DNA from: Nemertoderma westbladi
Lineage: Eukaryota > Animalia > Xenacoelomorpha
NCBI GenBank assembly: GCA_032718475.1
Contig: JAUCBJ010006452.1
Span: forward strand, 1 to 64,000
Reading direction: 5' to 3'
Length of the DNA: 64,000 nt
Numbering within the stretch: position 1 is the stretch's first letter; the number at the start of each line of letters is the position of its first letter. Below the pieces are notes generated by a model. That model did not search any database, had not been told where the DNA came from, and was given only the letters and a program-made list of their open reading frames with translations. A program made the position numbers and the translations under genes. This document shows, in pieces, positions 4,865 to 60,100 of this stretch.

Positions 4865-5236
4865 ATTTCTGCATGTTCTAATGAGCTGAGGAGCCGTTGG
4901 GCTCCCTCTAATGATTCTGAGAGTACTCCTAAGTCATCAGCAAAGTCTAGATCAGTTAGGTACTTGGCAGGATTTCCTCGACTTCTGGAGCCAGTAGGTG
5001 GAGTTATCATCACCCCATCATCATTATGATGATCTAAGGACATGCGTAGAACATAGTCAACCACAATAATGAACAAGAATGGTGCAACTGTGTCTTGGAG
5101 GACGCCCCATAACACTTCAAATGGTTCTGTGTCACCGTCAACAGTAGACACAAATGTTGTCGAACCATCGTATACTGATCTGATTGCTGCAATAATTTCA
5201 TCAGGAATCCTATATAATGAAAGTATGCTGAACATA
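4865..5236 (-). mobile_element. LINE RT fragment (piece 3 of the split LINE, RTE-like)
   Basis: GVLQ-DTVAPFLF and LTDLDFADD motifs. Joins piece 2 in frame across the TA TSD (KAFDSVSRSR|MFSILSLY). Confidence 0.88.
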
Positions 5237-5276
5237 CAGTGTTGTTCACAGTTAAAATCCATTCTTCAATCTTGGT

Positions 5277-5812
5277 TGTTAGCGAATCAATCCCGCCAAT
5301 ACTCCACAAAGTTGAGCCAATAAGCAATATTGGGGGACACGAGATTGGGTACCAACCAACTCGTGCCTCCCCAACAGAATGGGAGAGAGAAGCACACAAT
5401 AAGGGTCAGGGGTTAGTATCCTGACAGAAGAGGGAATAGCTGGGGTGAATGGGAACACCCCAAAGGGCGCCAACAAGGGTAGCAACCAATCAGAGGGGGG
5501 CTGGCACCGATTGAGTATCGATAAGGCCACCATGCAATATAACCAGTAAGCAGTAATCACATTACCTCAGTTATCTCAGTGTTACTGGTGGTACAGTAAG
5601 TTACAATTAGGGAAGTACCGGGATTTTAGTTACCGTCGTCCCGACAGCCATTAATGTTAGTGTATAACATCAATCTATATCTATATCTATATCACATCTC
5701 AACGTCAGAATATAACGAACAACAATAACTCCAACTTTATACTCTTTCATACGGCGGGGACGCGTGAACTAAACCGGATAAATCGGGTTCATCTCCGGAT
5801 GATCCCGTCACA
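5277..5812 (+). repeat. 5' LTR of A1
   Basis: Matches 15354-15889; TGTTAG...GTCACA termini. Confidence 0.97.
5484..5572 (+). promoter_or_regulatory. LTR pol II promoter: CCAAT, TATAA (5538), Inr TCAGTT (A at 5569)
   Basis: TATA lies 31 nt upstream of the Inr A; the same arrangement is kept in the diverged A2 LTR. Confidence 0.65.
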
Positions 5813-5880
5813 GTTACTAAATAACAACTGCTGCCCTAGCCTAATAGACTCAGATACCACCAGCCACCAACAGACAAAAG

Positions 5881-11800: not shown

Positions 11801-11898
11801 TCGAATTGACAAGGAGAGTGGAGCGAAGAATTAGAGGACCTATAGGGGGGAAGTGGGAGAGTTGCCTGCTGGAGGAATCACCCCTTGGGTCGCAATAA
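5881..11898 (+). CDS. gag-pro: Gag-protease polyprotein of A1 with in-frame pol remnants; two G-run frameshifts
   Basis: ORFs 5881-7470, 7442-8416 and 8476-11898 join if the G runs at ~7456 and ~8361 are corrected. BEL gag core PFKFDGS..EYLQF, Cys/His knuckles (CSRCVMGGHRARQC), protease LVDSGA; no YxDD. Confidence 0.85.
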
Positions 11899-12099
11899 GT
11901 TGGACCGAGAGGAAAGAGACAGATACGTAGAAGTGCGGGTAGAGGTGTTACCTGTCTTTTAGAGGGAGCGCCTTGATTCTAGAAGTGGAGGGAGTAAGTT
12001 TGTGTGTATATTATTAGTCGTCCATTTTGGACTGAGGGGGGTGGGATTGAGGGCTAGACGCCCTTCCCACACAAAATAATAAAATATAATAAAAAGAGT

Positions 12100-12722
12100 C
12101 AGTTAGTTAATTAGTTAAAGGTCTGTCCGCTAGTTAGCTAGAGTAGTTAGAGGGTACGTAGTACCGCTAGTTTATAGGAGTTAGTTAATTAGTTAAAGGT
12201 CTGTCCGCTAGTTAGCTGAAGTAGTTAGTTGGTTAAGGGTACGTAGTACCGCTGGCTAGCTAGAGAGTAAGAGTTAGGGTAGTTAGTTAATTAGTTAAAG
12301 GTCTGTCCGCTAGTTAGCTGAAGTAGTTAGTTGGTTAAGGGTACGTAGTACCGCTGGCTAGCTAGAGAGTAAGAGTTAGGGTAGTTGGTTAATTAGTTAA
12401 GGGTACGTCCGCTAGTTAGCCGGAGTAGTTAGTTAGTTGAGGGTACGTAGTACCGCTAACTTGCTAGAGAGTAGGGTAGTTAGTTAATTAGTTAAGGGTC
12501 CGCCCGCTAGTTAGCTGGAATAGTTAGTTGGTTAAGGGTACGTAGTACCGCTGATTAACTAGAAAGTAAGAGTTAGGATAGTTAGTTAATTAGTTAAAAG
12601 GGTCCGCCCGCTAGTTAGCTGGAGTAGTTAGTTGGTTAAGGGTACGTAGTACCGCTGACTAACTAGAGAGTAAGAATTAGTTAGTTAATTAGTTAGGGTC
12701 CGCCCGCTAGTTAGCTTAAGAG
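12100..12722. repeat. ~100-bp bipartite tandem repeat, ~6.5 copies, between pol remnant and accessory ORF
   Basis: Recurring TTAGTTAATTAGTTAAAGGTCTGTCCGCTAGTTAGC and GGGTACGTAGTACCGCT. Confidence 0.92.
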
Positions 12723-13173
12723 TTAGAAGTAGGGATATAGATATAGATACTAGTTAGTAGTTAGAGGGGGGCATATGAGTACAGTCGGATAGATCGTGTA
12801 GGCCACGCGACACATACTACTGTACTGCATAGACCCACAGAGTAGGCCAGAATGTGGATTAGAAAGTAGGATAATTCACAGGCAATAGTAAGTAATAGCA
12901 CGGCAGGGCAAGAAATAAATAGTATAGGGCTGAAAGTTACGAATTATGGTAACAGTAGAGAAATTATTCTGGAACATAATAAAAGTAACGGACAGAAATC
13001 GTAATTAGGGTACATTTGTTAGCTAGGGAATTAGATAAGAAACAATATAAGAAAAAGGCGCAAATTAAGTAGAATATAGGCCATTATCGAACCGAAACAT
13101 CGTAATACATCACTCATCTGTACTGCGCCTTGGTAAGGCACCACCTTGCAGGTGAGCGAGTGTAGAGTTCGGG

Positions 13174-14667
13174 ATGGCGAGCAAGTTGATCAGGAAGAGA
13201 AAGGCAGAGTCAGGAGGAAAGGAGACATTGGTGGACTTCACCAAGAGACATCCGGAAGAGAAGACGAGAGGGTACTACGAACGGTTGGAGAGGGGTCACG
13301 CAGCACGAGCGCTACAAGACCATTTCAGGGAAGTGCAGGAACAGCGGCTGGTCGGGACCTACGGGACACCGTCGCTGGACAACGCGATATCCCAACACTT
13401 CCACTATGTAGTAAAGGGAGACGAAGAGAAGTTCGGGATTCCGAGGTACGCCAGGGATTCGCCGAAGAAGGATTGGAAGAGGTTCGTAGAATCCGTCAGT
13501 AGAGGAGGATATATGATCCTGGATGACGAGGGAACCGTGGAAGACGGGAAGGGACATAGTGGGTCAACCGGGATACCGGGATTGGAACCACTGCGAGAGG
13601 AGGAAGAAGACGACGACGAGTTCGGGGAGATGCCACCCATTGCGAGGATAGGCCGCTCGGATACGGACTGGGTTGGCGGAAGAGTGGTGACGGCCAGTGC
13701 GGCGCGAGCCTTCTGGGACACGCCCGGCAAGCGGGCCTGGGTGCACGAAGAACCGGCGATGGATTTCGCGGGGGACACCATCAGGCTGGGCGAACAACCG
13801 GGAACGGCACCACGGGTAGTATTCGGGGAGACGATGCCCGATAGGGGCGGAGAAATCGACGTAGAAAGAGACAGCAATGTGGAAAAGTTCGCCTACCAGC
13901 GACTCCATAGACCGCGGAGGTCGCTCGGGACGAGAGACGACGTGGGGCGGGAGACATTGGTACTAGGCTGCGACTACTGTGGGAGACAGACCCACCAGGA
14001 AAGGAGCTGTTTGTATCGGTTCCAGAGGGGAACCTTTTGTCTCTACTGCCGAGAAACAAGCCACAGGATGGGAGCGTGTCCACGGTTACACAACCGATGT
14101 CCAAAGTGCCACTTCCGGGGACACTACGGACGCCAGTGCGACTGGATGGACGACGAGGAGAAGTTCGCAAGGTTCGAGGAGTGGGCCGACGTAGGGGCTA
14201 TGACGCGCCAGCGCATGAAGGCCCAGGAGTTCAAGTGGGGTTTCTTTCTCATAAACCAGGAGACCCACATGGAGATCATAAAGAGAAGGTTACCGTTTAC
14301 CTATCAAGAGGTAGCGACGGCGGCGTCGTACGCCGGAGTTATGAACACGCAACGGTACCTGGACAGATGGACACCGGAGAACCGAAAAGAGTTTAGGGAT
14401 TTCTTGACGGAACACGTACCGCAAGCAATGAAAACGATCCTATGGGACGCCACCAGAGGGAGGCAACCGGGCCACTCTGAGGGACCACCTGCGAAGCGGT
14501 ATCGGGCACTAATAACACCAGCGCCCAAGGAGCCAACAACCGGAATCAGCAGGGAGGTGGCGGCAAAGGTCCGAAAACACAAAGCGGATCCCAGAGGAGC
14601 GGTGATAAGCAAGAAACGACCCAGGGAGGAGGACGCCAGGGGGAACCACCCCCGAGGGAACAGATAG
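13174..14667 (+). CDS. Accessory ORF of A1: ExoI-motif remnant plus three zinc knuckles
   Basis: 497 aa. GYMILDDEG; CDYCGRQTHQERSC, CLYCRETSHRMGAC, CPKCHFRGHYGRQC. Collinear similarity to the B1 accessory ORF. Confidence 0.8.
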   Translation: MASKLIRKRKAESGGKETLVDFTKRHPEEKTRGYYERLERGHAARALQDHFREVQEQRLVGTYGTPSLDNAISQHFHYVVKGDEEKFGIPRYARDSPKKDWKRFVESVSRGGYMILDDEGTVEDGKGHSGSTGIPGLEPLREEEEDDDEFGEMPPIARIGRSDTDWVGGRVVTASAARAFWDTPGKRAWVHEEPAMDFAGDTIRLGEQPGTAPRVVFGETMPDRGGEIDVERDSNVEKFAYQRLHRPRRSLGTRDDVGRETLVLGCDYCGRQTHQERSCLYRFQRGTFCLYCRETSHRMGACPRLHNRCPKCHFRGHYGRQCDWMDDEEKFARFEEWADVGAMTRQRMKAQEFKWGFFLINQETHMEIIKRRLPFTYQEVATAASYAGVMNTQRYLDRWTPENRKEFRDFLTEHVPQAMKTILWDATRGRQPGHSEGPPAKRYRALITPAPKEPTTGISREVAAKVRKHKADPRGAVISKKRPREEDARGNHPRGNR

Positions 14668-15353
14668 GTTCCAAGGAGGCGAGGGAGTAGAACTGAAACT
14701 AGCACGTGGTATGCCTGGAGGGCACCGCACGGAACGTACGAACTATTAAGTAATTTAATTAATGCAAATATTCATATAAGTGCAATCTGTACGTACGTAC
14801 GTAGTAATCAGTAATAAAATACATACGTTCGGAGTAAGTACTATAGTCATACAACCTTTCTCAACTAGCTACTGGGAATGGGGGGCTAACATGACTATGG
14901 GACTATGGACGAGACATGAGACGACTTCACACCACTTGAGTGCGACGGCACGGGGGGGGGGGAGGTGACATTCGTCAGAGTGGATGAGGTAGTCAGTGAG
15001 GGGTCGAGGAGAGAGTCAGATAGAGCGGAGTGCGGAAGGAGTGCGGGCGCAATCCTATAGTGGGAAAGTGGTAAGAGAGTGAGTAAGGGACAGAGAAGTC
15101 CAAGAGTAGAGTGAGAGTTAAGGGCGAAAGTGTTGGGGAAACAAAAATCGTGTGAGAGGTGAGCGCGATCGGCCCGACGCGGACGCCAGGCATAAAGGGT
15201 AGCGTTATCATACCCAGAGGGAGCGGCCTGGAAAGTCGACTCCAAAAGAAAAGATTTCCACCCCACACCCGATGCTAGATCGGGATCCAGCGGGATTGTA
15301 ACGCACTTTAAGGTTTGATGCTATCTTCACCGGGAAGATAGCATGGGGGGGAG

Positions 15354-15889
15354 TGTTAGCGAATCAATCCCGCCAATACTCCACAAAGTTGAGCCAATAA
15401 GCAATATTGGGGGACACGAGATTGGGTACCAACCAACTCGTGCCTCCCCAACAGAATGGGAGAGAGAAGCACACAATAAGGGTCAGGGGTTAGTATCCTG
15501 ACAGAAGAGGGAATAGCTGGGGTGAACGGGAACACCCCAAAGGGCGCCAACAAGGGTAGCAACCAATCAGAGGGGGGCTGGCACCGATTGAGTATCGATA
15601 AGGCCACCATGCAATATAACCAGTAAGCAGTAATCACATTACCTCAGTTATCTCAGTGTTACTGGTGGTACAGTAAGTTACAATTAGGGAAGTACCGGGA
15701 TTTTAGTTACCGTCGTCCCGACAGCCATTAATGTTAGTGTATAACATCAATCTATATCTATATCTATATCACATCTCAACGTCAGAATATAACGAACAAC
15801 AATAACTCCAACTTTATACTCTTTCATACGGCGGGGACGCGTGAACTAAACCGGATAAATCGGGTTCATCTCCGGATGATCCCGTCACA
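15354..15889 (+). repeat. 3' LTR of A1
   Basis: Matches 5277-5812; followed by TSD TTGGT. Confidence 0.97.
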
Positions 15890-17445
15890 TTGGTCAATCT
15901 AGTCCCATAGAAAAATAATAGTTAGATTGATGAAATTGAACCTACTTTCAACTTCTTCAATCCAGACTTTCTGTCTAGATTGATCAGATTTAACAGATTG
16001 AAAATGTAGAGCCGAAGTATCCCTCTGTGCAGAGATGCCATGGGTTAGTAGGGCAGGCTTATCCATACCTAAAGGAATAAAGAGCAGGGCGGCTAGGCGG
16101 GTAGACTAAGCTCAAAGAGCAGGGCGGCTACTTCAAACATCTATAGGCCAGGCTACTATTGAAATCCCGCAGAGCTTGAGAGTGATTGACAGGCACAGTA
16201 ACAATACAGATGGTGTATGGTGACTTTCTGAATTGCAGTTTCAGTACACCTGCCGTCTGCAGAAGTTATTGCCAAATTTCTCCTCTCCACTCCAACTCCA
16301 TAAGTCAACATGGCATGGCCTTGTGTAACAAAGCCACTAATGAAATGGGCCGCACTTTTGCCGCCTAGTTGAATTAATAACATGTTGCCCTGTCAAGCCA
16401 GGAGTGCCTTAATAAATTTAATCAGCTACAGTCATACTGATAAATATTTTCCACTTTATATAAATAAACAAATTTAAAAGCAGAATCAATATTCTTAATT
16501 TTCTGAAGCTAAAGAAACCAAATGTCCTTACATTCGTTTCTCAGTTAGTTTAACAGTTATGTCCTTGACGTTCAAACCTTTATTACTTTGTTTAACCACT
16601 ATATTCCACCATATTCGTTATATAGACTTGAGGCACCTGCTCCAATGAACCTCCGGCCGCACGGCCGATCGCCCGCTGGCCGTAGCGATCAGGGCTAATT
16701 GGATTGCAGGGAGTAGGAAATGCCCCCCCCCCCCCCCCCCACGTTTGGCCGCCACGCTCAGTAGGCCCCTTGCTTAGACAATAGTCTATGCAGCAAGAGG
16801 AAATTGATAAGTACAGTAGGAAAGACTTGTCTTTTCTGTGGGCCGCACACCCGCATGTATAGATAGAGAGATGTGCAGATGTGAGTGTAGGAAGTAAAGT
16901 TAGGCATGGGCGGGGGTGGTTACATTAGGTAGGTTTAATATGATTTTCACTCAGCGCAGTTCGCACTAATCCCTATCGATTATGTTGCCATTTTTTGTTA
17001 CTTATTGTTTCCCGCCCTCCCTTGCAATCAATATTAAAACAGACCCCTGCGCCCCTGCGAATGTTTGATAGATTAATTGTTACATATAAATAATATTCAA
17101 ACAAAAAATAAATGTTCTTGTTTATTATATTTATGGAATGATCTCTTTATTAGCTAGTCCAAATGTAATCAGTGAGTAAAACATTTAATTTGTAAAAGTT
17201 ATAAATAATTATGCTTACAGTACTACATGTACTTTATTTGCTTGCAAGTGCCCCATAATTATCTGATCCCTGCAATAATCTCTTTTAAACCAATGCAACG
17301 GCTCTATTTTGGGGAGCCAACCATGTCCGCCTGTCAATCACTCAGTTGGCTAGAAACCTGCGGCGTCCTGAAAGATATTTCCAGATTGATGAAATTGAGC
17401 AGATTGAACAGATTGAAAAATGGACTTTAATTGAGAACATAACTG

Positions 17446-20626: not shown

Positions 20627-23600
20627 TTAGTCTTTCTTGCGCGGACGGCGTTTACGCAGTTTCTTGAGGCTAGCAAGAGTCCTTTTCTCTTTGGGGCGAG
20701 CCACTTTATGAGGAGGGCTGTAGCTCCTAGGTGAAGGGTGCAATACAATTGCATCAGAAGGTGTAGGGTTACGATCGGTATACCCGCCGGTCGAAGTACC
20801 TGGTTGATTAATATCAACCTCAGTGGAGCGAGGTCTAACGGTCTCTAGAGCGCGTCTCAGGACAGCAGCTCCTACGGGTCCCTGACGGGTCGTCTGGACA
20901 CTAGCGGTGGGTGGACCGTGAGTGGTAAGGAACTTTCGCGGTTTAATGGTTCTCTCCAGCTTGCGTTCTCGGGTTTGATATTCATATGGGCGCCGAGATA
21001 CTTCCTGGAGTTCAGGATGCGAGTTCACAAAAATGTCGCCATACTCAGGGTCCTGACGGATAAAATTGATCAGGTGATATGTAGTTATATCATTAGGGTT
21101 GACGTTTCTAAGGTATTTTCTGACAAACTTGGTGGAAATACACTCACCAACACGCTTCATTAACTCGTAACTGGGTACGCATGTTTTCTGTTCAATCGAC
21201 GCAAATAGGTAAGGATGGAACTCGTAAACTCCCTCGTAAGCTCGTCCAGGGTAATAGCGATGTCTGGATTCGCAATGTAAATCTGCGTTTGCTTCCCAAG
21301 CTCGAATGTATCGCAGGGTGATCATTTCGTCTACGCTCTCTAAATCGCGATTAAAGGGACAATTGTAACTTTCATGTCCTTTAAGTTGACAGTAGTGACA
21401 TTGAGTCATAAATTGTGGGCAGAAGGCAAAAATATGAGAGTTATTAAGTCTGCAATAAGCACAATATATTTCCATCATCGGTTGTTCGAGGAAATAGGAG
21501 CAAGGTGCGTTGGAGTCGAGAGGAGTGAAGTGGTCTCTCGATGCGCATAATCGACAACGTTTTCGAGAAACGTAGTTGGCGTGTCGATAATCGTACGCTG
21601 TGAGACGTTGTGGACCTTGATACCACTCTATGACATAATCATTGTCACTGCTCCGGGAAGCTGTAGGCTGAATCGCTTCTGATTCCAAGCATACTGGCTC
21701 ATCCTCCAGCTGCATAGACGAAGTGGGTGCGTCTGTTTCCGTAAGTGGACCCACTGTCTGTATTTCCACGACAGAATAACCTATAGGTATTCGAGGTCTT
21801 TGTATAACCGATGAATGTAAGTTCTGTATACAAATTTCTTGAAAAACGGCAAATCCAGCGCTACTCAGTTTCTCAGCAGCTGAGTCTCTCAGACTGAGTT
21901 TGGTCAGCGCGCGGTCCTTGAACTGACTATCAACGTTACGGAACGGAGTCAGGAAGCGCCGGAAACATTCAAAACGTATAAACTTATTGTGTTCGTCTAA
22001 CTTGGCGAGTTTAGTTCCAAGTATCAATGGGTGAGCGCGTATGGTACGACTGCACACATCGGCTAGCCAACCGGCAAGTGCTGCGTTTTCAAAGATCGTG
22101 CATATAGCTAAGGAAGGACGAAGTGGAACACTCATAAAGCTATACACGGCACCAGGCGCAGTTAATGGTCCATCGAAATATAAACGAGAGTAATGATCTC
22201 CATATACTTGCTGGTAATTGATAGGATTTCCAACCTTGAAATTCCAACCATATTCTTGAAAGGCAAGATGTCCGATGGATGTCCGTTGTACTTTAGTAAT
22301 GCCGCAGGGGGTATTGGCATACATAGTGCGAAAGAAACCTCGGCCTTCGGCCCAAGGAGCAATCAGCTGAGTATCAACGAAAGGGTATGGAATGTTCTCC
22401 ATATTCCGGAAGTCGTTTTGGAGGTCTCCATAAACAGCTGAGCCGATTTTTAGAATTCTTTCGTTAAACAACATTTCGAGTACAGGTTGGGGTAACATTG
22501 ATCCATCGATACCCATGGCCGGTTTGCGCTCGGTGTCGGTGACGTAACGCTGCGCGAGCTCGAATTGTCCATGTCAAAGTTTCTTTTGTATCTCCATAAG
22601 AGTTTCAAAAGAATAATCAATCACGTCGGAACACGCTCGAGTGAATACGTGGGTAGAACCAGCAAGTCCTCGTATATGTATCATTCGCGTGGTTCCTAAT
22701 TCTCCCACCGGAACGCTACCTTTGTTGTCATAAGTAACAACGCCATACATCTCGATAACGTTAAGAGTCTCGTTCCATTCTTTAGTGGCGTTTTCGAGAG
22801 TCATTCCCACTGGATGCCATAAAGTAGCGCACTCATTAGCATTGGGTAAATCTCTATACTTTAAGCATTGTGTAGTATAGGTTTCCACATCTCCATATCT
22901 TTTTACTCTTTCTTCCTCGAATAACACGTCAAGATTCCAGTGCACTAATCGAGTTTTAATGAATCCATCAAGATTGTACGGAGGTGATGTTTCTTTCTCT
23001 ATTCTAGAAATATTATACGGTTTTCGAAATGAGTTTAATTTAACTAGCTGATCTAGATGTTTTTGTAGTTGTTCGAGTTCGACAAGATCGAGAGGATTGA
23101 TTAATGGTAGGAACCTCAGACTATGCGTAGGATCTTCCGGTTTCACCATGTAATATTGCTTCAAATTGACGTAATAAGGGTGATCCTTAATTCCATAAAA
23201 TGAGTCCGGCAAAGGTCTAGCGCGTATGTTAACATCGTGCACCATGCGACGGACAAGATCCGCTCTATTGTCCGGAGGCTCAACAAGTACGCCATCGACA
23301 CGAGCAGCCTCGACGGGTGGACGTTGTAGCATGGGAGCGTCAGCAACGAGCTCGTGAGATCTGAGATCAGTATTAACCGGTTGAGGCTGTACCGTAGCAA
23401 AGAGCTTGTCTTTAAACTGAGGAACCATCAAGGGGTGGAGGATCGTTTTGGAATAGAGATCCGTCACTAGAATTTGAACTTCTGGTTGGGCTAAAGCTGC
23501 TTCTTCCCTCTCAGTCAGCTCCATATGTCTCTCCTCGAGCTGATTTTCCTCCGCTTGTTGTTGCAAGCGCTCGTCCAGGAATTCCTGTAAAGAGTAGGTT

Positions 23601-40709: not shown

Positions 40710-42545
40710 GAAGCTCAGAGAGGAGTTGGTACACAGAGAGGGTATGGAAGCTCAGAGAGGAGTTGGTACACAGAGAGGGTATGGAAGCTCAGAGAGGAGA
40801 TGGTACACAGAGAGGGTATGGAAGCTCAGAGAGGAGTTGGTCAACAGAGAGGGTACGAAGGCCAGATAGGAATTCGTACAAAGAGAGGGTATGGAAGCTC
40901 AGAGAGGAGTTGGTACACAGAGATGGTACGAAAGCCAGATAGGAATTCGTACACAGAGAGGGTATGGAAGCTCAAAGAGGAGTTGGTACACAGAGAGGGT
41001 ATGGAAGCTCAGAGATGAGTTGGTACACAGAGATGGTACGGAAGCCGATAGGAATTCGTACACAGAGAGGGTATGGAAGCTCAGAGAGGAGTTGGTACAG
41101 AGAGACGGTACGGAGGCCAGAGAGGAGTTGGTCAACAGAGAGGGTACGGAGGCCAGATAGGAATTCGTACACAGAGATGGTATGGAAACTCAGAGAGGAG
41201 TTGGTACAGAGAAAGGGTATGGAAGCTCAGAGAGGAGTTGGTACACAGAGATGGTATGGAAGCTCAGAGAGGAGTTGGTACACAAACAGGGTATGGAAGC
41301 TCAGAGAGGAGTTGGTACACAGAGAGGGTATGGAAGCTTAGAGAGGAGTTGGTACACAGAGATGGTACGGAGGCCAGATAGGAATTCGTACACAGAGAGG
41401 GTATGGAAGATCAAAGAGGTGTTGGTACACAGATAGGGTATGGAAGCTCAGAGAGGAGTTGGTACACAGAGATGGTGCGGAGGCCAGATAGGAATTTGAA
41501 CAAAGGGAGGGTATGGAAGCTCAGAGAGGAGTTGTGGTACACAGAGAGGGCATGGAAGCTCAAAGAGGAGTTGGTACACAGAGATGGTACGGAGGACAGA
41601 TAGGAATTCGTACACAGAGAGGGTATGGAAGCTCAGAGAGGAGTTGGTACACAGAGATGGTATGGAGGCCAGATAGGAATTCGTACACAGAGAGGGTATG
41701 GAAGCACAGAGAGGAGTTGGTACACAGAGAGGGTACAGAAGCCAGAGACGAGTTGGTACACAGAGATGGTATGGAGGCCAGATAGGAATTAGTACTCAGA
41801 GAGGGTACGGAATCTCAGAGAGGAGTTGGTAAACAAAGAGGGTACGGAGGCCAGATAGGAATTCGTACAAAGAGAGGGTATGGAAGCTCAGAGAGGAGTT
41901 GGTACACAGAGATGGTACGGAGGCCAGAGAGGAATTCGTACACAGAGAGGGTATGGAAGCTCAGAGAGGAGTTGGTACACAGAGAGGGTACAGAAGCCAG
42001 AGACGAGTTGGTACACATAGATGGTACGGAGGCCAGATAGGAATTAGTACTCAGAGAGGGTATGGAATCTCAGAGAGGAGTTGGTAAACAAAGAGGGTAC
42101 GGAGGCCAGATAGGAATTTGTACAAAGAGAGGGTATGGAAGCTCAGAGTGGAGTTGGTACACAGAGATGGTACAGAGGCCAGATAGGAATTCGTACAAAG
42201 AGAGGTTATAGAACCTCAGAGAGGAGTTGGTACACAGAGATGGTACGGAGGCCAGATAGGAATTCGAACACAGAGAGGGTATGGAAGCTCAGAGAGGAGT
42301 TGGTACACAGAGATGGTATGGAGGCCAGATAGGAATTCGTACAAAGAGAGGGTATGGAAGCTCAGAGAGGAGTTGGTACACAGAGATGGTACGGAGGCCA
42401 GAAAGGAATTCGCACAAAGATAGGGTATAGAACCTCAGAGAGGAATTCGTACACAGAGAGGGTATGGACGCTCAGAGAGGAGTTGGTACACAGAGAGGGT
42501 ATGAAAGCTTAAAGAGGAGTTGGTACACAGAGATGGTACGGAGGC
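40710..42545. repeat. 36/37-bp minisatellite, left part
   Basis: Interspersed units GAAGCTCAGAGAGGAGTTGGTACACAGAGAGGGTATG and GAGGCCAGATAGGAATTCGTACACAGAGAGGGTATG. Confidence 0.97.
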
Positions 42546-45500
42546 TGTTAGCTTATTCAATCCCGCTAACACCCCATAAAGTTAAGCCAATAAGCAATAT
42601 TGGGGGACATGAGATTGGGTAACAACCAACTCGTGTCACCCCAACAAAGTGGGAAGGAGAAGCACACAGTAAGGGTCAGGGGCCAAACCCCTAACAGAGA
42701 GAGAACAGGTGGAGTGAAGGGGAACACTCCAGAAGGCGCCAACAAGGGTATCAACCAATCAGAGGGGGGAAAGGCACCGATTGAGTACAGCAATAAGGCC
42801 ACCGTGCAATATAACTAGTGGGCAGTAATCATCTCACTCAGTTATCTCAGTATCATGTTGGTGCTAGTTAGGTTAGTTAGTTTAGCTAGGGAAGGACTGG
42901 GACTTTAATTACCGTTTCCCGCCTTCCGTGTACGACATCATATCACCTATATCTATATCTATATCTTATACCTGAACATTATACACAAGGAACGACACAA
43001 ACTCTTTCACTCTTCACACACGGCGGGGACACGTGAATTAACACCGGATAAACCGGGATCCTTCCCTGGATCCCGTCACAGTAATTAAATCAGAGCTGCC
43101 GCCCTAGTTGAATCCACTAGCTACCAGTGACTACCAGCCACCAATCCAAAGTTAAAGGAGATGAGTAGAGAAGGAGAGACGACACCGACGCGGACCCCGG
43201 ACGACAATCTAACGATCCGCGAGGCCGCGACCAGACAGTATACACCCACGACGCCGGACCCATCGATGACGGGCGATCCGGAAGTTCAGGATGAGGGGGG
43301 CCGTCTGGAGTCAGAGGTCGAGTCGAGAGGAGGGGAAGTCGAGTTAGAGGGAGAAAGAGACGAGTCGACACGCGACGACGATCACCGTGCCGATGCCGCC
43401 GGCCCGCCACAGGCTGAGGGCGACAGACGGCCCACCGGAATGGCGACGGCGGGGCCGCCGGTACGACGTTGGACCCGGAGAGACAGAGGAGAGGTCGGCG
43501 ACGAGGACGTCGGGGTTTCTGAGCAACTTCAACGGGCCTACATCGCGACCCGGAGACTACTAGAGGAGGCCAGAGGAGGGGCGACGATAGACGAGGTAAA
43601 ACTAAAAAAAGAACTAGGTGAGTCAAATAGGCATTTTAACTATTTAATGCGATTAGGACAGAGAGAAACGGCCAAAGAGAGAGCGAGAGGGGTCGCCAAG
43701 AAACTGTGTGACCTATGGGGGTGTAGGGATATGGGGCCTGGTGCAGTGTACATAGGGCCATACTTAGTCGGTGCCCAGGGTGTAAAATTAGTGGGTTGGA
43801 AGAGACCTGAGGAGGGCGAATCCGAGGCTGACCCCGAGGATTTGGTCTCGTCGGTCGGAGGGAGTTCTGGGAGGAGGGGGAAAGTTAGTGGGACGGGAAG
43901 GCGGATGGAATCCGTCACAACCGGTAAGTCTGCTACATCCTCCGCGAAAGGAAGACGGGTGAGAGAGATAAACGCCACGTACCATCTCGACCTAATAACG
44001 CAAGGTAATAGAGAAGTAAGTAGACGGTTAGAGGAGGGGAGAGTGCTGATAGAGAAGGAGATGGCACTGATTAGGGAGACAAGAGAGAGGGCCGAAAGGG
44101 CCGCGAGAAGCTTTAGGGAGTGTGAGGAAATAGAGAGGAAGGAACAAGAGGAGCGTGTGGCGGAACGTAAGGAGCGTGAGGCGAGAGAATAAAAGGAACG
44201 GAAAGAGCGTGAGGCGGAACGCAAAGAGCGTGAGGCGGAACGTAAGGAGTGTGAGGTGAGAGAGGAAAAGGAACGCAAGGAGCGTGAGGAGAGGCGAAGG
44301 GAGGGAGCTAGGAGAGTGGCAGAGTTGGCCGACCAGGACGCGCGGAAGTGTGAGGAGAGAATGGCAAAAGCGGAGCGAAAGCAGAAGGAATTGGAGAAAC
44401 AACAAAGTGGGATTATAGAGTACAAAGCTAGACACATGCGCAAATTGGAACTGGCGCAGATAGGGGCGCGTCTGAGAGCGGGGATGGCTCGAATATTTTC
44501 GAGGAGCCAAGGGCCATGGACACGTTTATTAATACCCCACTTACAGGGACCGCACGACAGACCCAAAACTGGTGTGACCGTACGGGCGGGGGGGGGGGGG
44601 GGGGGGGGGGGGTAATAATAATATTACCGTAGATGACGTTAATATTAATAATACTGTATTGAATTACTCTAACCAAATCTTTATTGCAGGAAGTACTTTA
44701 CCTAATAGTAATAATTTTATTTTAAATCCGAACAATTTAAATATTAACGTGCAAAATAATTCTAATAATGTAGTTATGCAGAATAACCCAAATAATTCAA
44801 ATAATAGCCCGAATTTGAATTTACAAAGTAACACAAATAATTTAAATAATAATCCGAATTTGAATTTACAAAATAATTTAAATAATGTTGTAACGCAAGA
44901 TAACGTTTTTAACTTTGGTGCACAAAATAATTTGGGTGAACTAGAGGATAATCACAGTGGTGTTATTGGTGTGGATGCGTCGGACGTACATAGCCCGGCG
45001 GGTGAGGGCCTGGTAGGCCACGTAGTCGGTAGGCCGGAAGCAGCGGGGTTGAGCCAACCCGAGGTAGGCCTGGTAGGCCTCGTAGATAGTAGGCCGGAAG
45101 CGGCGGGGTTGAGCCAACCCGAAGTCCAACCTGATCGTGCTAAAGACGCTAAACGCACCATACGAGCTCAACGCGTCCAACAACATCACCACGATAGCGC
45201 AGGCACTGCCGATCTGGCTGCGCAATAAGTGGAGGAGAGTCGGTTTCTCCACTCGAGATAGAAAGGGTGCGGAACCGGGTTTAGAAGAAATGTCGAGCTT
45301 CTTAAGCTACGAAGCTGAATTAATAACCAATCCAGTCTATAGCGAAGATAGCCTGGGAAAGGGATCAAAGACAGATTACCATAGACTGAAACCAGAGCAC
45401 AACGCTTCGAATGCATTACCAAAGCTCAGGCAATCACAGCCATATGCAGCAACCCAGGGGACTGCAAGTCCACAAGTAGCAGAAGGTAAGACCGGACAGG

Positions 45501-47220
45501 GGAAAAATAACAACACGAATAAACATAGCCCCAATACATCCAGAAGGCAGAACTCAAACTATAAAAACAGTAGGGACTTCAGTACAAATGCAACTGCGAT
45601 ACACGATGCACTGTACAAGGACGGCTACGACCCAAAGAGTAAATGCCAACTACATACAAATGCAAAGCATCGAACCATGAATTGCAGCTACTGGCAACCG
45701 TTACCTAGGGAAGATCAGCTAGAATATGCGGCGAGAAATGAGATCTGCTCACGATGTGTGAAGAGTGGACATCGAGCAAGGCAATGCACGGAGACCCCGG
45801 TTAAGTTCGGTCAATACAAAGGCCAAAAGATGGCAACGAGCACAGTAGGGGCGAAGAAAAGAGGAACGGTGCTACTTGGGGTAGTACCGGTGCGAGTGAT
45901 TGGGGAAGGCAACCGATCAGTAACCACTCTGATGCTGGTTGATAGCGGAGCTGCCTTCACATTAGTTGAGGATTGGGTGGCCAAAGAAATAGGATTGAGG
46001 ACGAGGCCAAGTAGAATGGCGGTAACAACTATCTCTAGTAAAGACGAGGTCCTAGAGATGAGGACCGGACGGTGCGCGATTGCAGCAGTAGCACTGGGAT
46101 GTGACTACGGGGCAACCATCGACCCCATCCAAGCGATAGAGTCAATTAATATCAATGCCAGGCAGCCAACCAACATCAAGGTTGAGCAATATAAATTCCT
46201 GGACAGTATTGACTTCTCAATCCCGGAGGTGGACGTCAGGAAGGTATCCATCCTAGTAGGAATGGACTGCCCGACGGCCCACGAAAGAATGCAAACGGTC
46301 TTCGGCGAAGACAGGGAGTGTGACCCAGTGGCGATATTGACACCATTTGGGTGGACACTGAGTGGCCCAATCAAGAGCAAGATACCATTTAGGATGTCGG
46401 AGACATCAGGATGCATGTTCACGGGAACTATGCAGGAAATGGGTGATGAGAGAGCAGAGGAGCAGCTTAAAAGACTGCTCAAACAAGATTTTGAGGGATT
46501 AAAGGAGACCGGGGTAGGGACCTCGGTGGAGGACAAACAGGCTCAACAGAGCGTAGAGGAGTCCATGACATGCAATGAGGGGCGGTATACCATAGGGATG
46601 GTATGGAAGCTACCGAAGCTACCGTTACACGATAATAAAGGGATGGTACTTACGAGGCTTCGTAAGTTGAAACAGACACTAAAACGGAGCCCCGAGAAGA
46701 ATGAGTACATCCACCGGACGATTAAGAAGTACGTCGAGAAAGGATGGGCTGTGGAGTTACCGGTCGACGAACCGAACACAGACAGGACATATTACCTGCC
46801 ACTCCACGTGGCTTTAGATCCGAAGAAAGGCAAACTGAGGATGGTAGTAGATGCGTCGGCAAAAACCAACGGAAAATGCCTAAACGACTATCTACTAGAG
46901 GGCCCCAATATATACAACTCGGGGATCGAGGTCCTACTAAGGTTCAGGAATGGGATACACGCCTTCACCTGTGATATTGAGGGCATGTTCAACCAAGTCC
47001 GTGTAACGGAAGAAGATAGCAATAGTCAACACTTCTTATGGTATAACGGCGACGAAGAACCGCCGATTATACTGATGTACAAGATGATAGTACAGAACAT
47101 GGGGGCCAAGTCGTCTTCCTTCACGACGACTATGGCGGTAAGAGACACAGTGAAAGGGAAGAAGGATAGATATAGTACTAGGGCCGTCGACATGATTCGA
47201 CGCGGCTTCTACGTAGACGA
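42546..47220 (+). mobile_element. Truncated BEL/Pao A2 (5' LTR 42546-43080, gag with internal deletion, PR, RT up to YVDD)
   Basis: LTR and gag homologous to A1. ORF 45137+ continues into RT (LRMVVDAS, LNDYLLEGP, DIEGMFNQV, FYVDD). Deletion junction at ~45125. Confidence 0.93.
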
Positions 47221-47961
47221 CACAGAGATGGTACGAAAGCCAGATAGGAATTCGTACACAGAGAGGGTATGGAAGCTCAAAGAGGAGTTGGTACACAGAG
47301 AGGGTATGGAAGCTCAGAGATGAGTTGGTACACAGAGATGGTACGGAAGCCGATAGGAATTCGTACACAGAGAGGGTATGGAAGCTCAGAGAGGAGTTGG
47401 TACAGAGAGACGGTACGGAGGCCAGAGAGGAGTTGGTCAACAGAGAGGGTACGGAGGCCAGATAGGAATTCGTACAAAGAGAGGGTATGGAAGCTCAGAG
47501 AAGAGTTGGTACACAGAGATGGTATGGAGGCCGGAGAGGAATTCGTACAAAGAGAGGGTATAGAACCTCAGAGAGGAATTCGTACACAGACAGGGTATGG
47601 AAGCTCAGAGAGGAGTTGTGGTACACAGAGATGGTACGGAGGCCAGATAGGAATTCGTACACAGAGAGGGTATAGAAGCTCAGAGATGAGTTGGTACACA
47701 GAGATGGTACGGAGGTCAGATAGGAATTCGTACAAAGAGAGGGTATGGAAGCTCAGAGAGGAGTGGGTATACAGATATGGTACGGAGGCCAGAGAGGAAT
47801 TCGTACAAAGAGAGGGTATAGAACCTCAGAGAGGAGTTGATACACAGAGAGGGTATGGAAGCTCAGAGAAGAGTTGGTACACAGAGATGGTTCGAAGCTC
47901 AGAGAGGAGTTGGTAAACAAAGAAGGTATGGAAGCTCACAGAGGAGTTGGTACACAGAGAT
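47221..47961. repeat. 36/37-bp minisatellite, right part
   Basis: Same units as 40710-42545. Confidence 0.97.
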
Positions 47962-48164: not shown

Positions 48165-49787
48165 TGTAGAGTTGTGATAAATAAATGTTTACACAAATGA
48201 AAATAAAATCTTCTTGAATGACTTTAATGACACAAACATACCCTATATAACTCAAGGAGTGCAGACCTACAAGTACATTAGATACTGTCTGCTGTATGCT
48301 TAGTAGAATCAAAGTAGCTCAATGTTAATAAATGGATCAGTTTATATGAATAAATAATTGGTGTATTTTATGAAATAAAGTAACGGACTGATAAACCAAC
48401 ACAAACTCTCCTACTAAAACGGTGCCTTGGATGCCAGATGTTGCATTGTCTATATTGGTTTAGGTACTGTAAACTAACAAAGAGGAAAGGATTTATATTA
48501 ATAAATATTTGAAATTCCAATTTGTTGTCGTCATGTGATGTCTGCATATAGGGTAATGACTAATATACATTGCGGTGTGGAGTGGAGTTGATATGAATCT
48601 ATCGAGGGGAGTTTACAGAACCCAAGTTATATAAAAAAATGAAGTTTATTATATATTTTAAGAGATATTGAAATTTAGAGGCATCATGCTTATAAATAAA
48701 ATTTAGTTATATAGGCAAAATGTACAAAGCAAACAGAACAGGCCCTGACATACATGAGTCTGGGTTCGGCTAAGCTGTCTAGCATTCAAAGCACTGTGAC
48801 CAAACAGTGCTGCCTCATCTAGAGATCGAACAATTTGGACCTGATACTTAGGAAACCCAGGAATGTCACCTCTAGACCAATCTGCTCTATCCAAAATAAA
48901 CATAAAGACACTTTTTAGGCGATTCATATCTTCGGCCTTTGGGAGATATATTTCTTTACGTTTCTTTCATCATCATCTTATCATTACCATCAACATTTAG
49001 CTCATTTATCACACATCCTACCATACAGTAGGGCCTTCCTACTGTACTGTATGTACAGTATACTGTACAGCATTGGGGGGTCTCATTTGTTTCCTAAGCT
49101 TCTTTTGCGTGCAAATTGTGAACAGTCTGTGACTCTGAGAAATAAATGGCTGCGACATGACGCCGGCAATATAATACACACAATATTTATATTACCTCGT
49201 TGCAACCACATTTCGAGCGCTACTGTATGGAATACTTCTTGCAACTGCTGCTCTGGTTGCAGCTCAGTATCCCTCGTGTAATGTGTCTGACTGCCCAACA
49301 GCTACTGTAGGACTGTAGATGTAGAACTAAACATGATCTGACTTTATCTGATTATTAGACTGTGCAATACAGCCATTATAGAGTTACTGTATTTGTTATG
49401 CAGGTTACTGTAGATATAGTAGTAAACAATTTTGGTCCTTATTATTCTTACTTTTGGTTCTTTCTTATTTTGGTTGCATGTACTTAGGCGGTTGGTTTGG
49501 GCTTTAGTGGTAGTGGTATCAGTTTTGGGTTTCATCTATCTACTATCTGTCTGATTTATTTTATTTCTGTATTTCAGTAGGCCTACCTATTCTTTTACGT
49601 TTCCTGTAAGGTCAGGTCAGGTATTCTAGGTCATTGATCAAGAAAACTTGCCACCTACATGCAGCATAAAGGAGGTGCCACCGGTAGCTGCATAGACCCT
49701 CTTACTAGGAAAAATCTGGTCCTGTAACTAGGACCCCCTTCGTTCTGGGATAAGGACGCCCTTGGTCCTTGATTAAGGACCCTTATA

Positions 49788-50180
49788 CAGTCTTGTTCAC
49801 AATTAAAATCCATTCTTCAATCTGCATCAATCCGAATCAATCTACTCTCATAGAAAAATAATAGTTAGATTGATGAAATTGAACCTACGTTCAACTTCTT
49901 CAATCCAGACTTTCTGTCTAGATTGATCAGATTTAACAGATTGAAAATGTAGAGCCGAAGTATCCCTCTGTGCAGAGATGCCATGGGTTAGTATAGGGCT
50001 GTGTAGGGCAGGGGAATAAAGAGCAGGGCGGCTAGGCGGGTAGACTAAGCTCAAAGAGCATGGCGGCTGCATCAAACAACTATAGGCCAGGCTACTAATG
50101 GGATCCCGCAAAGCCTTAGATTGATTGACAGGCACTGTCACAATACAGTTGGTGTGTGTGTGGTGTTCTACTGAATTGCG
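49788..50180 (+). mobile_element. Partial second copy of the Tc1/mariner-type element
   Basis: TA|CAGTCTTGTTCACAATTAAAATCC; matches 5237-5271 plus 15895-16240. Confidence 0.88.
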
Positions 50181-50499
50181 GTAGTGTACTGTAGAATACT
50201 GTAGTTAAATTCCTCCTTTCCAGTTATCCAGTTGCAGTCTATACAATGTACTGTAGATTATTTGACTTGGCTAACCGCACTATTCCCTTCATTAAATATT
50301 ACAATAAACGAATAAACCCCTGGAAAAATGCTTGGTAGAATGTAAAAAAACCCTCATAAATTGTCTACTTACTGTTATATGGTGTGGTATGTATGGGGGA
50401 GGGAGGAGGTTAAATAGTTTTTAGGCTTATAATAGGTACAGTACGTTTTATGTAGTTGAACGGCTACCTTAATGACATCATGTCTTTATATAAGTATGT

Positions 50500-56504: not shown

Positions 56505-57125
56505 TGTCATTTTGCCGCGTTATCGCTCATCGTCGACATCGAACTTTCCGCTTAGCCGTCGCGTAATATTCTTCCGATACCATTCCGTTCTATCGATTAA
56601 TAAACTCTTTTGTCGTCCACGGCAACCAACTTCTTCGCGAACATCCAAACTTCATCTTTCCGTTGAATATTTACTAACACTGTAAGTAAAATCTGCCTTC
56701 CACCATCTCCATCGACGCCGCTAGCAAACAATTTACATTTAATGTCTACCGATACAACAGTATTGCAGTAGGCTCATTATTAATTACTATCAGACTGCGG
56801 TGCTACCGATAGCCTAAACCGTGATTGAGGCATTCGATCAATAGGCCTACAACTGTTTATCTGCTTATAGTATTTTTTATCTTTTTACAAATAATCAACT
56901 TATTTTTCTAGTGTCATTTTGCCGCGTTATCGCTCATCGTCGACAACAAACTTTCCGCGTTTCCATTGTGTAATATTTTTTCGATACCATTCCGTTCTAT
57001 CGGTTAATAAATTATCTCGTCGTCCACGTCAACCAACTTCCTCACAAACTTCCAAACTTCTTCTTTCCGTGAATATTAACTAATACCGTAAGTAAAATCT
57101 GCCGGTGTCTGTCATTTCGCCGCAT
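56505..57125. repeat. ~195-bp direct repeat (two copies; a third start is cut by the B2 insertion)
   Basis: TGTCATTTTGCCGCGTTATCGCTCATCGTCGAC at ~56505 and ~56912; TGTCATTTCGCCGCAT at 57110. Confidence 0.8.
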
Positions 57126-60100
57126 TGTACGCGCTTTTGTAGACCTTTAGCAGTTTAACCTGCCAAAATTTATATGTCTTTAATTGTTAAATTGACTTTA
57201 GAAGATGACAAAGATTTAACACAAAACAAACAAAAACATTAGTCGAAGCCAGTCGATGCGCGTTCATTCACCCGATGGTTACACCCGGGAGACTGGATTC
57301 GTATGCTTAGATTTATTGCGGTGAAGCCTACTGTATTATTCGATTGATCACTAATATATAATCTCTGACAAGTATTATTCACTTTCGGGAAATATTAGCA
57401 GTTCCTTTAGGACGTGGCGTTCTACCTATGTAAACAGAGCTATGACTTATACTAAACACAACGATATGGCTTAGAATTCAAGTATGAGACGCATTCTTTA
57501 GGAGATGCTTAGTTATCAGCCACAATCATACACACTACCGGTAACGCACAATACTGCTCACTGGTATGCCGACAGTTACTGACTTTGATCAGGTATAAAG
57601 AGGAACACACTGGACTCATGTAGTATCTATTAAACAGCATTAGATTCACTACAAACACAATAATATAAGTCGCAATTGTTGTATGTATCCTGTCTCTCTA
57701 ACCTGTAGTGTATCAAGAATATTGGAAAATTTGGGTTGTTTATCGATATTCTTCAACTAATAACATCCAACTAGACTGATACAAATAATCACAAACAGTA
57801 AAAGCAGTAAGACGGTAGGTTACGATATGATAAGTATGAATGAGTTGTTGTGATAAGATTGGACCGTGATTAGACCGTGGTTTGATAACAGTTATACTTT
57901 CTATAATCTAAGCCTACTAAGGTTCCTTCTAAAGTCTGAAACATAGAGTCATTCCAAAAGCCGATGTTCAGGCAATAGGAACGACATAACACACATACTG
58001 ACTCGCCCAGCCTCGATCTGGAGAGTATCTCTTCAGAGAAAACGAAAATCGCCCTGATTGGCCGTTAGGCAGAAACAAAGAAACCAGGTGTCCAATGAGG
58101 GCTCCTTCCACGTCATCAGCCAGCTGGGAGATGTCGTAATCGGAATTCTTCCCACGACATGGTGACAGAGAGAATGCCGCATTGCGGGTTTTGTACCTTG
58201 TTATGTCCGCTAAAGCACACATCCAGAAGAATCAACATTTATTTCCGTTAAAAACACCTATACATTACTTTGAGGGCCAGGGAATTAATTATATCCGTAA
58301 ACGCGTTTACAGTAGGTTTTAGAGTATTTGAGCGCACGGGGGGAAAACTGGATTGCGGAGCAAAGGAGCAGTTATATCCCATAGAAGCTTTTACACCGCT
58401 CCCAGAAAATGGGATTTAAGTCTATAAAATATACTAAATCACAGTTTCTAATATACGTAAATACTCTAAACAGTTAGTCTTTCTTGTGCGGACGGCGTTT
58501 ACGCAGTTTTTTAAAGCTAGCCAGAGTCTTTTTCTCTTTGGGGCGAGCCACTGTACAAGGAGGGCTATAACTCCTGGGTGAAGGGTGCAATATGATTGCA
58601 TCAGAAGGTGTAGGATTATAGTCGGGGTATCCGCCGTTTCGATATGTTTCTCCTCAAGCTGATTTTCCTCCGCTCATCGTTGGATACGTTCGTCTAAAAC
58701 TCTCGCCGAGAATAGGGTCGTCCAAGTTCAATATCGTCTTAGGGACTATGGATTTCCCAATCGAACTGGGATAAAGCCAATCCGTTTACCGCTTGGACTT
58801 GCTGTTATAATTTAGGTTTATCTGAACAAACGTAGGTTTCTTTTCTGATCTTTGTAGAATAGCGTCTATCTCGTTTCGTACAACGCTCTCCTCCGCCTTG
58901 ATGATGGGTGGTAACGGGTTAAACAGGGACGATTCCGATTATACGGTTGAATGGCGATATTGGGTGTCCGTCCCCCAATCCGGTCAGGTAAGATAGGCGG
59001 ATATTTAGGGAGCCATCAACCTGAGTGCCACCGACTAACGGTTCGGGTAACACTGGATCTCTGAACGGTAAGTACAGTTCGTGAGGATCCGTGATACTAT
59101 TAGGATCAAGAGTCCGAGGTCTAACTGAGGAATGAGGAGGTCTGACCGAGCATTCCGGAACTCAGATCATAGGTCTACTCAAGGATCGCCTGAGCCGAGA
59201 GAGCGTGGGTGACACATCGGACAAGTTTCTCCCGAAACTCCCGCAAACACAGCGAACAAACCGTGTTTAAAGCAACGTCTCCACTGGCGTTTATGTCTTT
59301 CCGTTTGTTGGTTGGTCTTGGGCATTCATCGTAATAATACCAAGACACACGTCTTGTAGGGGAAACGCGGGTGATATTTATTTGGTGTTACAATGCTTCT
59401 CTCAAGAATTCTAAATATACGTTGGAGTTACCGCGTTTATCCGCTTCTTGAACGTCTTTTCTTTCGAGTCGATTTCGAATAGAATTTTCGCATTCGAATT
59501 TCAGTTTATTGTTGCGACTCCGCTGGGTAGGATATTTAAATAATACCATTTCCCTTTTTGCGTTGACATAGTCCGTATCGTGTAAGTCGATAGAATGGCC
59601 GGTAGTTAAGAAGTCCATATACGTACCATTACGATGCGTATAGCGAGCGGTGAATCTTGCTATAGTCCAATTCACGCGTAAGTTGCTCCTGGGACATAGG
59701 CGGTTCGATATAACTACCATCGTCCTCCGTAGTAGTTGGATCAGCTTCACCGCGTATCAAGCTTATCCACAAACGCTTGTAAAGGTAGAGTATATCTCTC
59801 TCTAATACCAAGATCATCTTCTATCAACTCCGTCATATCTGCTTATATGAGTTTATTAATATTATAATGAGTTTAGCTTTAGGCGAGCGGGCGTCGCTGC
59901 CTACTCCTCTCTGCCCCCGGACAGTGGGATCCTCAGCGCCGATGCACCGTTGTCGCGGTGTTTACGCCAACGTAGTAGCAACAGCACGACAACGATAACC
60001 GGCACAAGTCACTCCACTGTCCGTCCCAAAGTCTTGAAATCACTTAAGGTTTTACGGCAGAGTTAAGGTTACTTTCACAATTGCGACTCGCTACTGTAAA

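Follow-up and report, generated by a model that had tools for sequence, protein, structure and literature searches.

The window, the whole 64,000-nt stretch of Nemertoderma westbladi DNA analyzed here, raises the question of how a BEL/Pao-type retrotransposon primes reverse transcription when no tRNA-binding site follows its 5' LTR. The window is repeat-rich DNA with two BEL/Pao-type families, A and B, and in both copies of family A (A1 and A2) the first bases after the LTR are complementary to a segment of the same LTR. As judged from the sequence, the most likely use of this pairing is self-priming. We assign a probability of roughly 0.5 to the reading that family A primes in a Tf1-like manner with an internal primer ~56-65 nt from the predicted cap, and we hold self-priming by family A in one form or another to be rather probable.

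Two BEL/Pao-type families in the window

By structure and predicted proteins, A1 and A2 are classified as BEL/Pao-type LTR elements. A1 has TG...CA LTR ends, a target-site duplication, and a polypurine tract (Table 1). BEL/Pao-type Gag, protease, and reverse transcriptase (RT) are indicated by DUF1759, the aspartic protease, the similarity of the A2 RT, and a tree, and all 38 of the 38 matches to the protease-RT piece of A2 carry Peptidase_A17 (Pao), DUF1759, or DUF5641. The series of protease, RT, RNase H, and integrase is incomplete in the family-A copies: no match to RT, RNase H, or integrase was found anywhere in A1, and A2 is truncated within RT. The two LTRs of A1 differ at 1 of 536 positions. 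Because the LTRs are near-identical and RT, RNase H, and integrase matches are missing, A1 appears to be a young (recently inserted), non-autonomous copy with intact ends. A2 has a 5' LTR only; it begins at 42546 inside a 37/73-nt satellite, and its RT is truncated at ~47220, where the satellite resumes. Over the LTR and leader, A1 and A2 match in 475 of 652 aligned columns.

The B1 polyprotein is uninterrupted over 2702 codons and contains Peptidase_A17, integrase H2C2, and DUF5641. Most of the named best matches to its RT region belong to cnidarians, echinoderms, molluscs, and fish (~40-43% identity), and the A2 RT piece is ~35% identical to B1.

Several other features of the window were observed. 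The satellite array is found on both sides of A2 (40710-42546 and 47220-47960). The insertion site of A1 is itself a repeat (5234-5272 / 15894-16239), and an element-free copy of this repeat is located at 49785-50182. A piggyBac-type transposase (DDE_Tnp_1_7), interrupted by a stop, lies at 1561-2973 on the minus strand. Both families have an extra ORF near the 3' LTR, at 13156-14667 (+) and 20627-22573 (-), with a cluster of Cys/His knuckle-like motifs. These two ORFs are related to each other (27% over 74 aa, E 5e-07) and match nothing in Pfam. Their product is a possible candidate for an RNA chaperone acting on a switch in the leader.

Table 1 Features of families A and B in the window.
Feature	Position	Strand	Remark
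A1 whole element	5277-15889	+	LTR, target-site duplication, and polypurine tract structure
A1 5' LTR	5277-5812	+	536 nt; TTGGT target-site duplication upstream, at 5272-5276
A1 TATAA (5538) and TCAGT (5567, 5576)	5538-5580	+	predicted start ~5569
A1 outer R-leader stem, 5' arm	5585-5612	+	predicted
A1 candidate self-primer segment	5625-5633	+	second copy in 3' LTR, 15702-15710
A1 competing U5 partner	5767-5777	+	pairs 5618-5621 and 5625-5631; then GATAAA at 5777-5782
A1 terminal U5 hairpin	5784-5807	+	predicted; one U-U mismatch
A1 primer-binding position	5813-5821	+	no TGG; 8/9 complementary to 5625-5633
A1 outer stem, 3' (leader) arm	5834-5863	+	predicted; first ATG then at 5881
A1 DUF1759 gag and aspartic protease ORF	8356-11898	+	
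A1 polypurine tract	15345-15353	+	
A1 3' LTR	15354-15889	+	target-site duplication at 15890-15894
A2 5' LTR	42546-43080	+	TG...CA, 535 nt
A2 TATAA (42810) and two initiator-like TCAGT (42838, 42847)	42810-42851	+	predicted start ~42840
A2 outer R-leader stem, 5' arm	42857-42891	+	predicted
A2 candidate self-primer segment	42904-42912	+	3' base pairs with first base after LTR
A2 inner G+C helix	42918-42923 with 43022-43027	+	predicted; closes variable loop
A2 competing U5 partner	43036-43047	+	pairs primer segment and 4-nt block 5' of segment
A2 terminal U5 hairpin	43054-43075	+	predicted
A2 primer-binding position	43081-43089	+	no TGG; 9/9 complementary to 42904-42912
A2 outer stem, 3' (leader) arm	43102-43138	+	predicted; first ATG then at 43161
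A2 internal region	43131-47220	+	gag-side ORFs, aspartic protease, first part of RT
B1	37900-19342	-	second BEL/Pao family
B1 comparison match	36693-36682 (after 5' LTR) vs LTR positions 442-453 (37459-37448)	-	12/12

No TGG lies near the 5' LTR of A1, A2, or B1

The first TGG downstream of the 5' LTR is at +217 in A1, +226 in A2, and +283 in B1, and therefore the 3' CCA end of a tRNA cannot pair near the LTR. Family A contains no 18-nt site matching the 3' end of a host tRNA of the kind given in the ICTV profile of Belpaoviridae, and an ARAGORN search of the window returned nothing. An earlier note on this DNA, made from the sequence, had claimed that family A lacks a tRNA primer-binding site. 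This claim holds for both copies as regards a CCA-type site, and comparison with control loci gives weight to the missing site.

The control set came from an RT alignment scan of genome contigs, which gave 30 BEL/Pao loci (L005-L034). These loci sit in prokaryotic genome bins of GTDB representatives, and their contigs are evidently eukaryotic contamination. The 5' LTR end could be located in 9 of the 30: seven two-LTR loci (L014, L016, L018, L019, L023, L025, and L027) and two circular contigs (L012 and L024), in which it was read by eye. The other 21, including L028 (a 132-nt partial repeat), L008, and L017, were dropped, as their 5' LTR end was not locatable. All nine readable loci have a TGG at most 8 nt after the LTR, and self-complementary runs in the seven two-LTR loci reach at most 6 nt.

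In a quick IQ-TREE tree (57 rows, 245 columns), the nine control loci are all on one side of a branch with an SH-aLRT of 99, and A2, a long branch, and B1 are on the other side. Shuffling the labels on the tree gave 42-47 of 500, which is not significant. Three loci, L005, L006, and L017, share the side of the window's elements, and none of them has a readable 5' LTR end. The opening six letters of L005 match the tail of the tRNA-type site of L014, and L005 may be tRNA-primed. The control set shows that a missing TGG is unusual; it does not show that the whole lineage self-primes.

Scans with motifs for the LTR end gave four metagenome matches with no BLAST similarity to the window and none in viral contigs. 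The four matches were read as chance, and two of them lie within a CRISPR-like array. RT scans of viral contigs and a single-protein RT scan of genome contigs found nothing.

The first bases after the LTR are complementary to the LTR itself

The earlier note had placed LTR-to-leader pairing in both family-A copies, and we found this pairing where it had been described. The complementarity is 9/9 in A2 and 8/9 in A1, where the mismatch is U-U at 5631/5815. The polarity of the match is that of a minus-strand primer, with the 3' base of the R segment opposite the first base after the LTR, and the match begins exactly at +1 in A1, A2, and B1. Among 250 leader offsets, a 9-nt run was found in A2 only at offset 0. 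When A1 was searched for the complement of its own site with up to one mismatch, it was found solely at 5625 and in the 3' LTR copy of this segment. Chance was assessed with 1000 dinucleotide shuffles of each LTR. The match was reached by 3/1000 shuffles for A2 (9 perfect), 47/1000 for A1 (8 with one mismatch), and 0/1000 for B1 (12 perfect). Taken alone, the A1 match of 8/9 would be marginal.

Start sites were predicted from the spacing of motifs. The transcription start had been put ~55 nt before the pairing segment, in agreement with the 56 nt that follow in A1 from TATAA at 5538 and TCAGT at 5567/5576; the corresponding distance in A2 is 64 nt. Only one TATA/initiator pair is common to both LTRs (5538/5567 and 42810/42838), and A1 5569-5580 is identical to A2 at 12/12 positions.

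The 3' LTR of another family-B copy, B2 (57125-58395, minus strand), differs from B1 across the aligned primer segment, and the B2 5' LTR lies beyond the window. Just upstream, B2 has donor-like and acceptor-like motifs ~60 nt apart, as seen by eye.

The leader is predicted to fold back onto R, with a second partner of the 9-mer in U5

The strongest structural element predicted is an outer stem, in which the part of R that precedes the 9-mer pairs with the part of the leader that follows the primer site. The parts of this stem reported before are present: A2 42881-42891 pairs 11/11 with 43102-43112 (two G-U), and in A1 as well as A2 the two halves of the TAGGG/CCCTA block are each separated by 12 nt from the paired 9-mers. 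The terminal U5 hairpin that the earlier note had described is likewise present in both copies (Table 1). The nested GTCCC/GGGAC helix of the same note exists literally in A1, whereas A2 has CCCGCC/GGCGGG instead. Compared with shuffled sequences, the predicted 5' regions have z values of -3.37 (reached by 0/100) and -3.17 (1/100), and the outer stem was beaten by 0/295 and 0/195 internal control windows of the same length.

The arms of the outer stem pair between A1 and A2 (-35.2 and -30.5 kcal/mol) as well as within each copy (-29.3 and -36.9 kcal/mol), and in A1 the leader pairs more strongly with a G-rich U3 window than with the adjacent R arm. Because of these two results, co-evolution of the arms is not shown; the outer stem is conserved. 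For pairing with the leader in B1, the adjacent window comes 9th among 115. A duplex between U5 and the leader is also possible in family A (-14.9 and -12.2 kcal/mol); it is weaker than the upstream R-leader stem (-22.6 and -32.4 kcal/mol), in a comparison made with a folding program that cannot score pseudoknots. Conserved blocks flank the variable loop on both sides, and A1 and A2 are identical at 20/22 positions over 5801-5822 compared with 59/105 in the loop.

The 9-mer has a second partner in U5, which the earlier note overlooked. The predicted probability of this R:U5 helix at 15-37 °C is 0.86-1.0 in A1 and 0.59-0.72 in A2, and that of the primer-site helix is 0.00 in A1 (at 15, 25, and 37 °C) and 0.27-0.34 in A2. 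The favored predicted fold in both copies is the R:U5 helix and not the claimed primer-site helix. Forcing the latter costs 7.1 kcal/mol in A1 and 1.6 kcal/mol in A2 at 37 °C. When a cut after the segment was modelled, pairing with the primer site rose from 0.30 to 0.91 in A2 and stayed at 0.00 in A1, where the pairing probability with U5 was 0.99. The R copy of the 3' LTR, folded alone, is also bound by its U5 partner. A GATAAA motif common to both LTRs (5777/43047) abuts the U5 partner, and AATAAA is absent from both LTRs.

In B1, the 12-nt segment has a competing partner inside its own LTR (positions 825-830 and 854-858) in a long-range fold, a type of prediction that is unreliable. This competitor within the LTR echoes the U5 partner of family A.

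Sequence changes between copies

The earlier note had called the pairing covarying. The compensatory change on which this was based is present, with G-C in A1 and A-U in A2 at 5629/5817. It is one two-sided change between R and the primer site in two copies, with a placement null of 0.21, and covariation is not statistically shown. Across six helices, 37/37 core pairs form in A2 and 35/37 in A1, with two two-sided changes, both via column 5629, and two one-sided changes. The column that changes in the primer site also changes in the U5 partner. The placement null for this three-way coincidence of R, U5, and site is 0.018, for a comparison chosen post hoc. We note that the helices were selected after inspection of the same two sequences.

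To look at further copies, we aligned contigs from three samples (four public runs) on A1 5500-5960, with A1 as the reference. Family A is multi-copy in these contigs. The six runs listed as carrying the sequence included no RNA run, a result without bearing on expression. Among 40 of the 49 variant rows, none lies in 5608-5637, none in 5751-5787, and one in 5798-5824 (position 5815), in a variant table that is incomplete, because A2's own variants in 5608-5637 are missing from it. Insertions at 5770-5772, inside the U5 partner, are among the variant rows listed. Position 5815 carries the base of A2 in 171/203, 2489/2561, 451/451, and 113/113 depth units of the four runs. Diverged contigs of one run follow A1 as far as 5637 or 5822 and differ beyond, and loose contig ends at 5787 in all four runs point to a variable hairpin top. 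The R segment and the primer site are spanned together by none of the 32 contig pieces listed out of 467. Both copies and most contigs share the primer site.

A proposed model of self-priming and its alternatives

We propose the following model for an internal primer. Before any cut, the segment would lie mostly on its U5 partner, which would act as a latch and would be the only partner available to the segment in the 3' LTR copy. The short, A+U-rich duplex of 9 bp with the primer site would be held by ~25 further pairs of the R-leader clamp, 12 nt away. A capped primer of ~65-75 nt with a free 3' OH would result if the RNA were cut once, immediately 3' to the segment (after 5633 / 42912); the element's own RNase H is the presumed nuclease, by analogy with Tf1. 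For strand transfer, R would then run from 5634 onward. This requires polyadenylation at a more 3' position, for which the GATAAA motif (5777/43047) is a candidate signal. If, as reported for Tf1 cDNA, the primer were copied into the new primer site, a change in the R segment would be carried over to the site, and two independent mutations would not be required. The earlier note had stated that a primer so far from the start would need processing. A cut is indeed needed, but this does not distinguish family A from Tf1, in which the 3' end of the primer is also cut; the distinct feature would be the ~56 nt of RNA retained 5' of the segment. The model predicts an exact RNA-DNA junction at 5633/5812.

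The main difficulty for this model is A1, a recent insertion with a mismatch three bases from the primer end and a segment strongly bound to U5. For priming in A1, a protein chaperone would have to assist, or a co-packaged helper RNA would have to supply the primer. The predicted duplex is also short, as its 9 bp are below the 10 bp used by Neumann et al. 2019, according to the accessible text of that paper (PMC6317226). Within the window, the evidence on family A comes from two copies, both defective; it comprises a helix of 9 bp and a single two-sided change. A broader proposal, which we offer tentatively and with considerable doubt, is that a deep aquatic BEL/Pao lineage evolved self-priming independently of Tf1, in which a capped fragment of 65-75 nt, an internal R primer, a leader clamp, and a U5 decoy latch holding until the cut in the particle would amount to gating by an RNA switch.

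Alternatively, the pairings may form a switch in the leader RNA that serves packaging, translation, dimerization, or poly(A) choice, with priming by another RNA, such as a host RNA without CCA or a tRNA fragment. Such a switch would fit the favored R:U5 helix in both copies, the change of U5 at the column of the primer site (three-way null 0.018, post hoc), the conserved GATAAA abutting this helix in LTRs without AATAAA, and the first ATG just past the outer stem. We nevertheless consider it unlikely, as a switch gives no reason for a match that has priming polarity and begins right at +1 in all three elements, A1, A2, and B1. In addition, subfamilies have different sites, whereas re-copying from one host RNA would be expected to keep the site the same, and Rfam finds no RNA gene in the window, which also speaks against a host-RNA primer. 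The anticodon arm of tRNAs has an invariant U33 and a purine at position 37, and in the registers checked by hand the 9-mers misfit a cut in this arm, which argues against a half-tRNA primer.

Similarly unlikely, and placed next, is self-priming from another source: a second start at the segment (a 5'-terminal primer as in Tf1), the 3' R copy, or a co-packaged partner RNA. A free primer would escape the penalty of 7 kcal/mol in A1. Without RT, A1 must use the proteins of a helper and may be co-packaged with the helper RNA, and the A1 segment pairs with the A2 site as well as A2's own segment does (-5.0 kcal/mol). Alternative start sites are described as governing the primer supply of Tf2 in the accessible text of PMC5341516. 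Against these sources, both LTRs share a single TATA/initiator pair, the outer stem, which is the strongest structural signal, can form only with RNA that precedes the segment, and the U5 partner is predicted to hold the 3' R copy when this copy is folded alone.

Last, we judge it very improbable that the 9-nt match arose by chance in A+U-rich sequence, or is what remains after decay, and that these defective copies have lost their real site: both family-A copies are defective, 47/1000 shuffles reach the A1 match, and the helices were picked after viewing these two sequences, but A1 inserted recently with intact ends, the site is common to both copies and most contigs within a stretch of 20/22 identity (59/105 in the loop), and B1, with its uninterrupted 2702-codon polyprotein, has the 12/12 signature.

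A primer built by splicing, for which the primer site would pair across an exon-exon junction of the LTR, was rejected. Using candidate GT/GC-AG introns, offsets 0-2, and Watson-Crick pairs only, the best run spanning a junction was 7 nt among 627 introns in A1 and 680 in A2, and no run of at least 7 nt was found among 5396 candidate introns in B1. Both LTRs contain ~90-100 nt without AG that end in CAG exactly at the LTR/leader border (5709-5813 and 42990-43081), as well as a donor-like hexamer (5596 / 42872). A splice that removes R-U5 to give a non-primable mRNA is conceivable from these motifs.

Comparison with known systems

In the ICTV profile of Belpaoviridae (PMC8742986), the primer site is 18 nt long and matches tRNA-Arg or tRNA-Gly, and replication is described as tRNA-primed and poorly understood; a tRNA-Tyr site is given for Achilles in the accessible text of PMC4580426. 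No report of self-priming in BEL/Pao elements was found in the full-text literature as far as it was accessible, including PMC13524379, PMC2864245, and PMC8220671; an earlier mention elsewhere is possible. The words "primer", "PBS", and "tRNA" do not occur in the BEL/Pao survey PMC3118150, nor do "PBS" and "tRNA" in the Sinbad paper PMC554778. In the accessible literature, self-priming is demonstrated only in Ty3/gypsy elements of the Tf1 type and predicted in one copia lineage. If family A primes itself, a third superfamily would be added, and tRNA independence would have arisen repeatedly or be old. This would bear on the proposal, found in the accessible text of PMC3601003, that priming by hairpins is older than priming by tRNA. 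If the primer is indeed internal and a U5 latch competes for it, self-primers would not have to be 5'-terminal, and many annotations of the type "no PBS found" would be explained.

Compared with Belpaoviridae such as Tas and with Achilles, family A is alike in its TG...CA LTRs, polypurine tract, DUF1759 Gag, protease, and RT similarity, and A1 shares the 5-bp target duplication of Belpaoviridae. It differs from both in having no tRNA site. Family A is BEL/Pao-type by proteins only and does not fit the ICTV description of priming.

The TAR lineage (Houba and Osr-1) of plant Ty1/copia elements is alike in that complementarity to the LTR led to a prediction of self-priming, within a superfamily whose other members use tRNA. 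According to the accessible text of Neumann et al. 2019, self-priming was predicted for Tcn1 and TAR from at least 10 bp within 0-5 nt (PMC6317226). TAR differs from family A in being copia and in plants, and the family-A matches (9/9 and 8/9) are shorter than this threshold, by one base in A2; the 12/12 match of B1 exceeds it.

Family A is also comparable with Tf1, Tf2, and Tj1, with Tf1/sushi elements, and with Tcn1, which are Ty3/gypsy chromoviruses. As far as described in the accessible text of PMC7175516, PMC4600332, and PMC10085805, they also have no tRNA site, and their post-LTR sequence is complementary to their own R. Flanking helices, which are predicted in family A, and a single cut that releases the primer, which is proposed there, are further points of likeness. 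The Tf1 primer is reported to be the first 11 nt of the RNA, cut by RNase H at its 3' end (PMC7175516), and about half of the cDNAs in Tf1 particles are reported to carry a copy of the primer site at the 3' end (PMC11042837). By contrast, the family-A segment has 9 nt and lies ~56 nt from the predicted start. The extra helices of the three-duplex Tf1 pretzel use LTR sequence downstream of the primer, as far as the accessible text of PMC10085805 describes them, whereas the family-A leader is predicted, by a program that cannot score pseudoknots, to pair upstream of the segment in a nested arrangement without a pseudoknot, and the segment has a predicted competing U5 partner. Family A also belongs to another lineage, as its proteins are BEL/Pao-type and not the chromovirus Pol with a chromodomain integrase that defines Tf1/sushi elements. 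Taken together, the family-A feature probably works like the self-priming of Tf1 in an element that is not a Tf1/sushi member and departs from the priming described for BEL/Pao.
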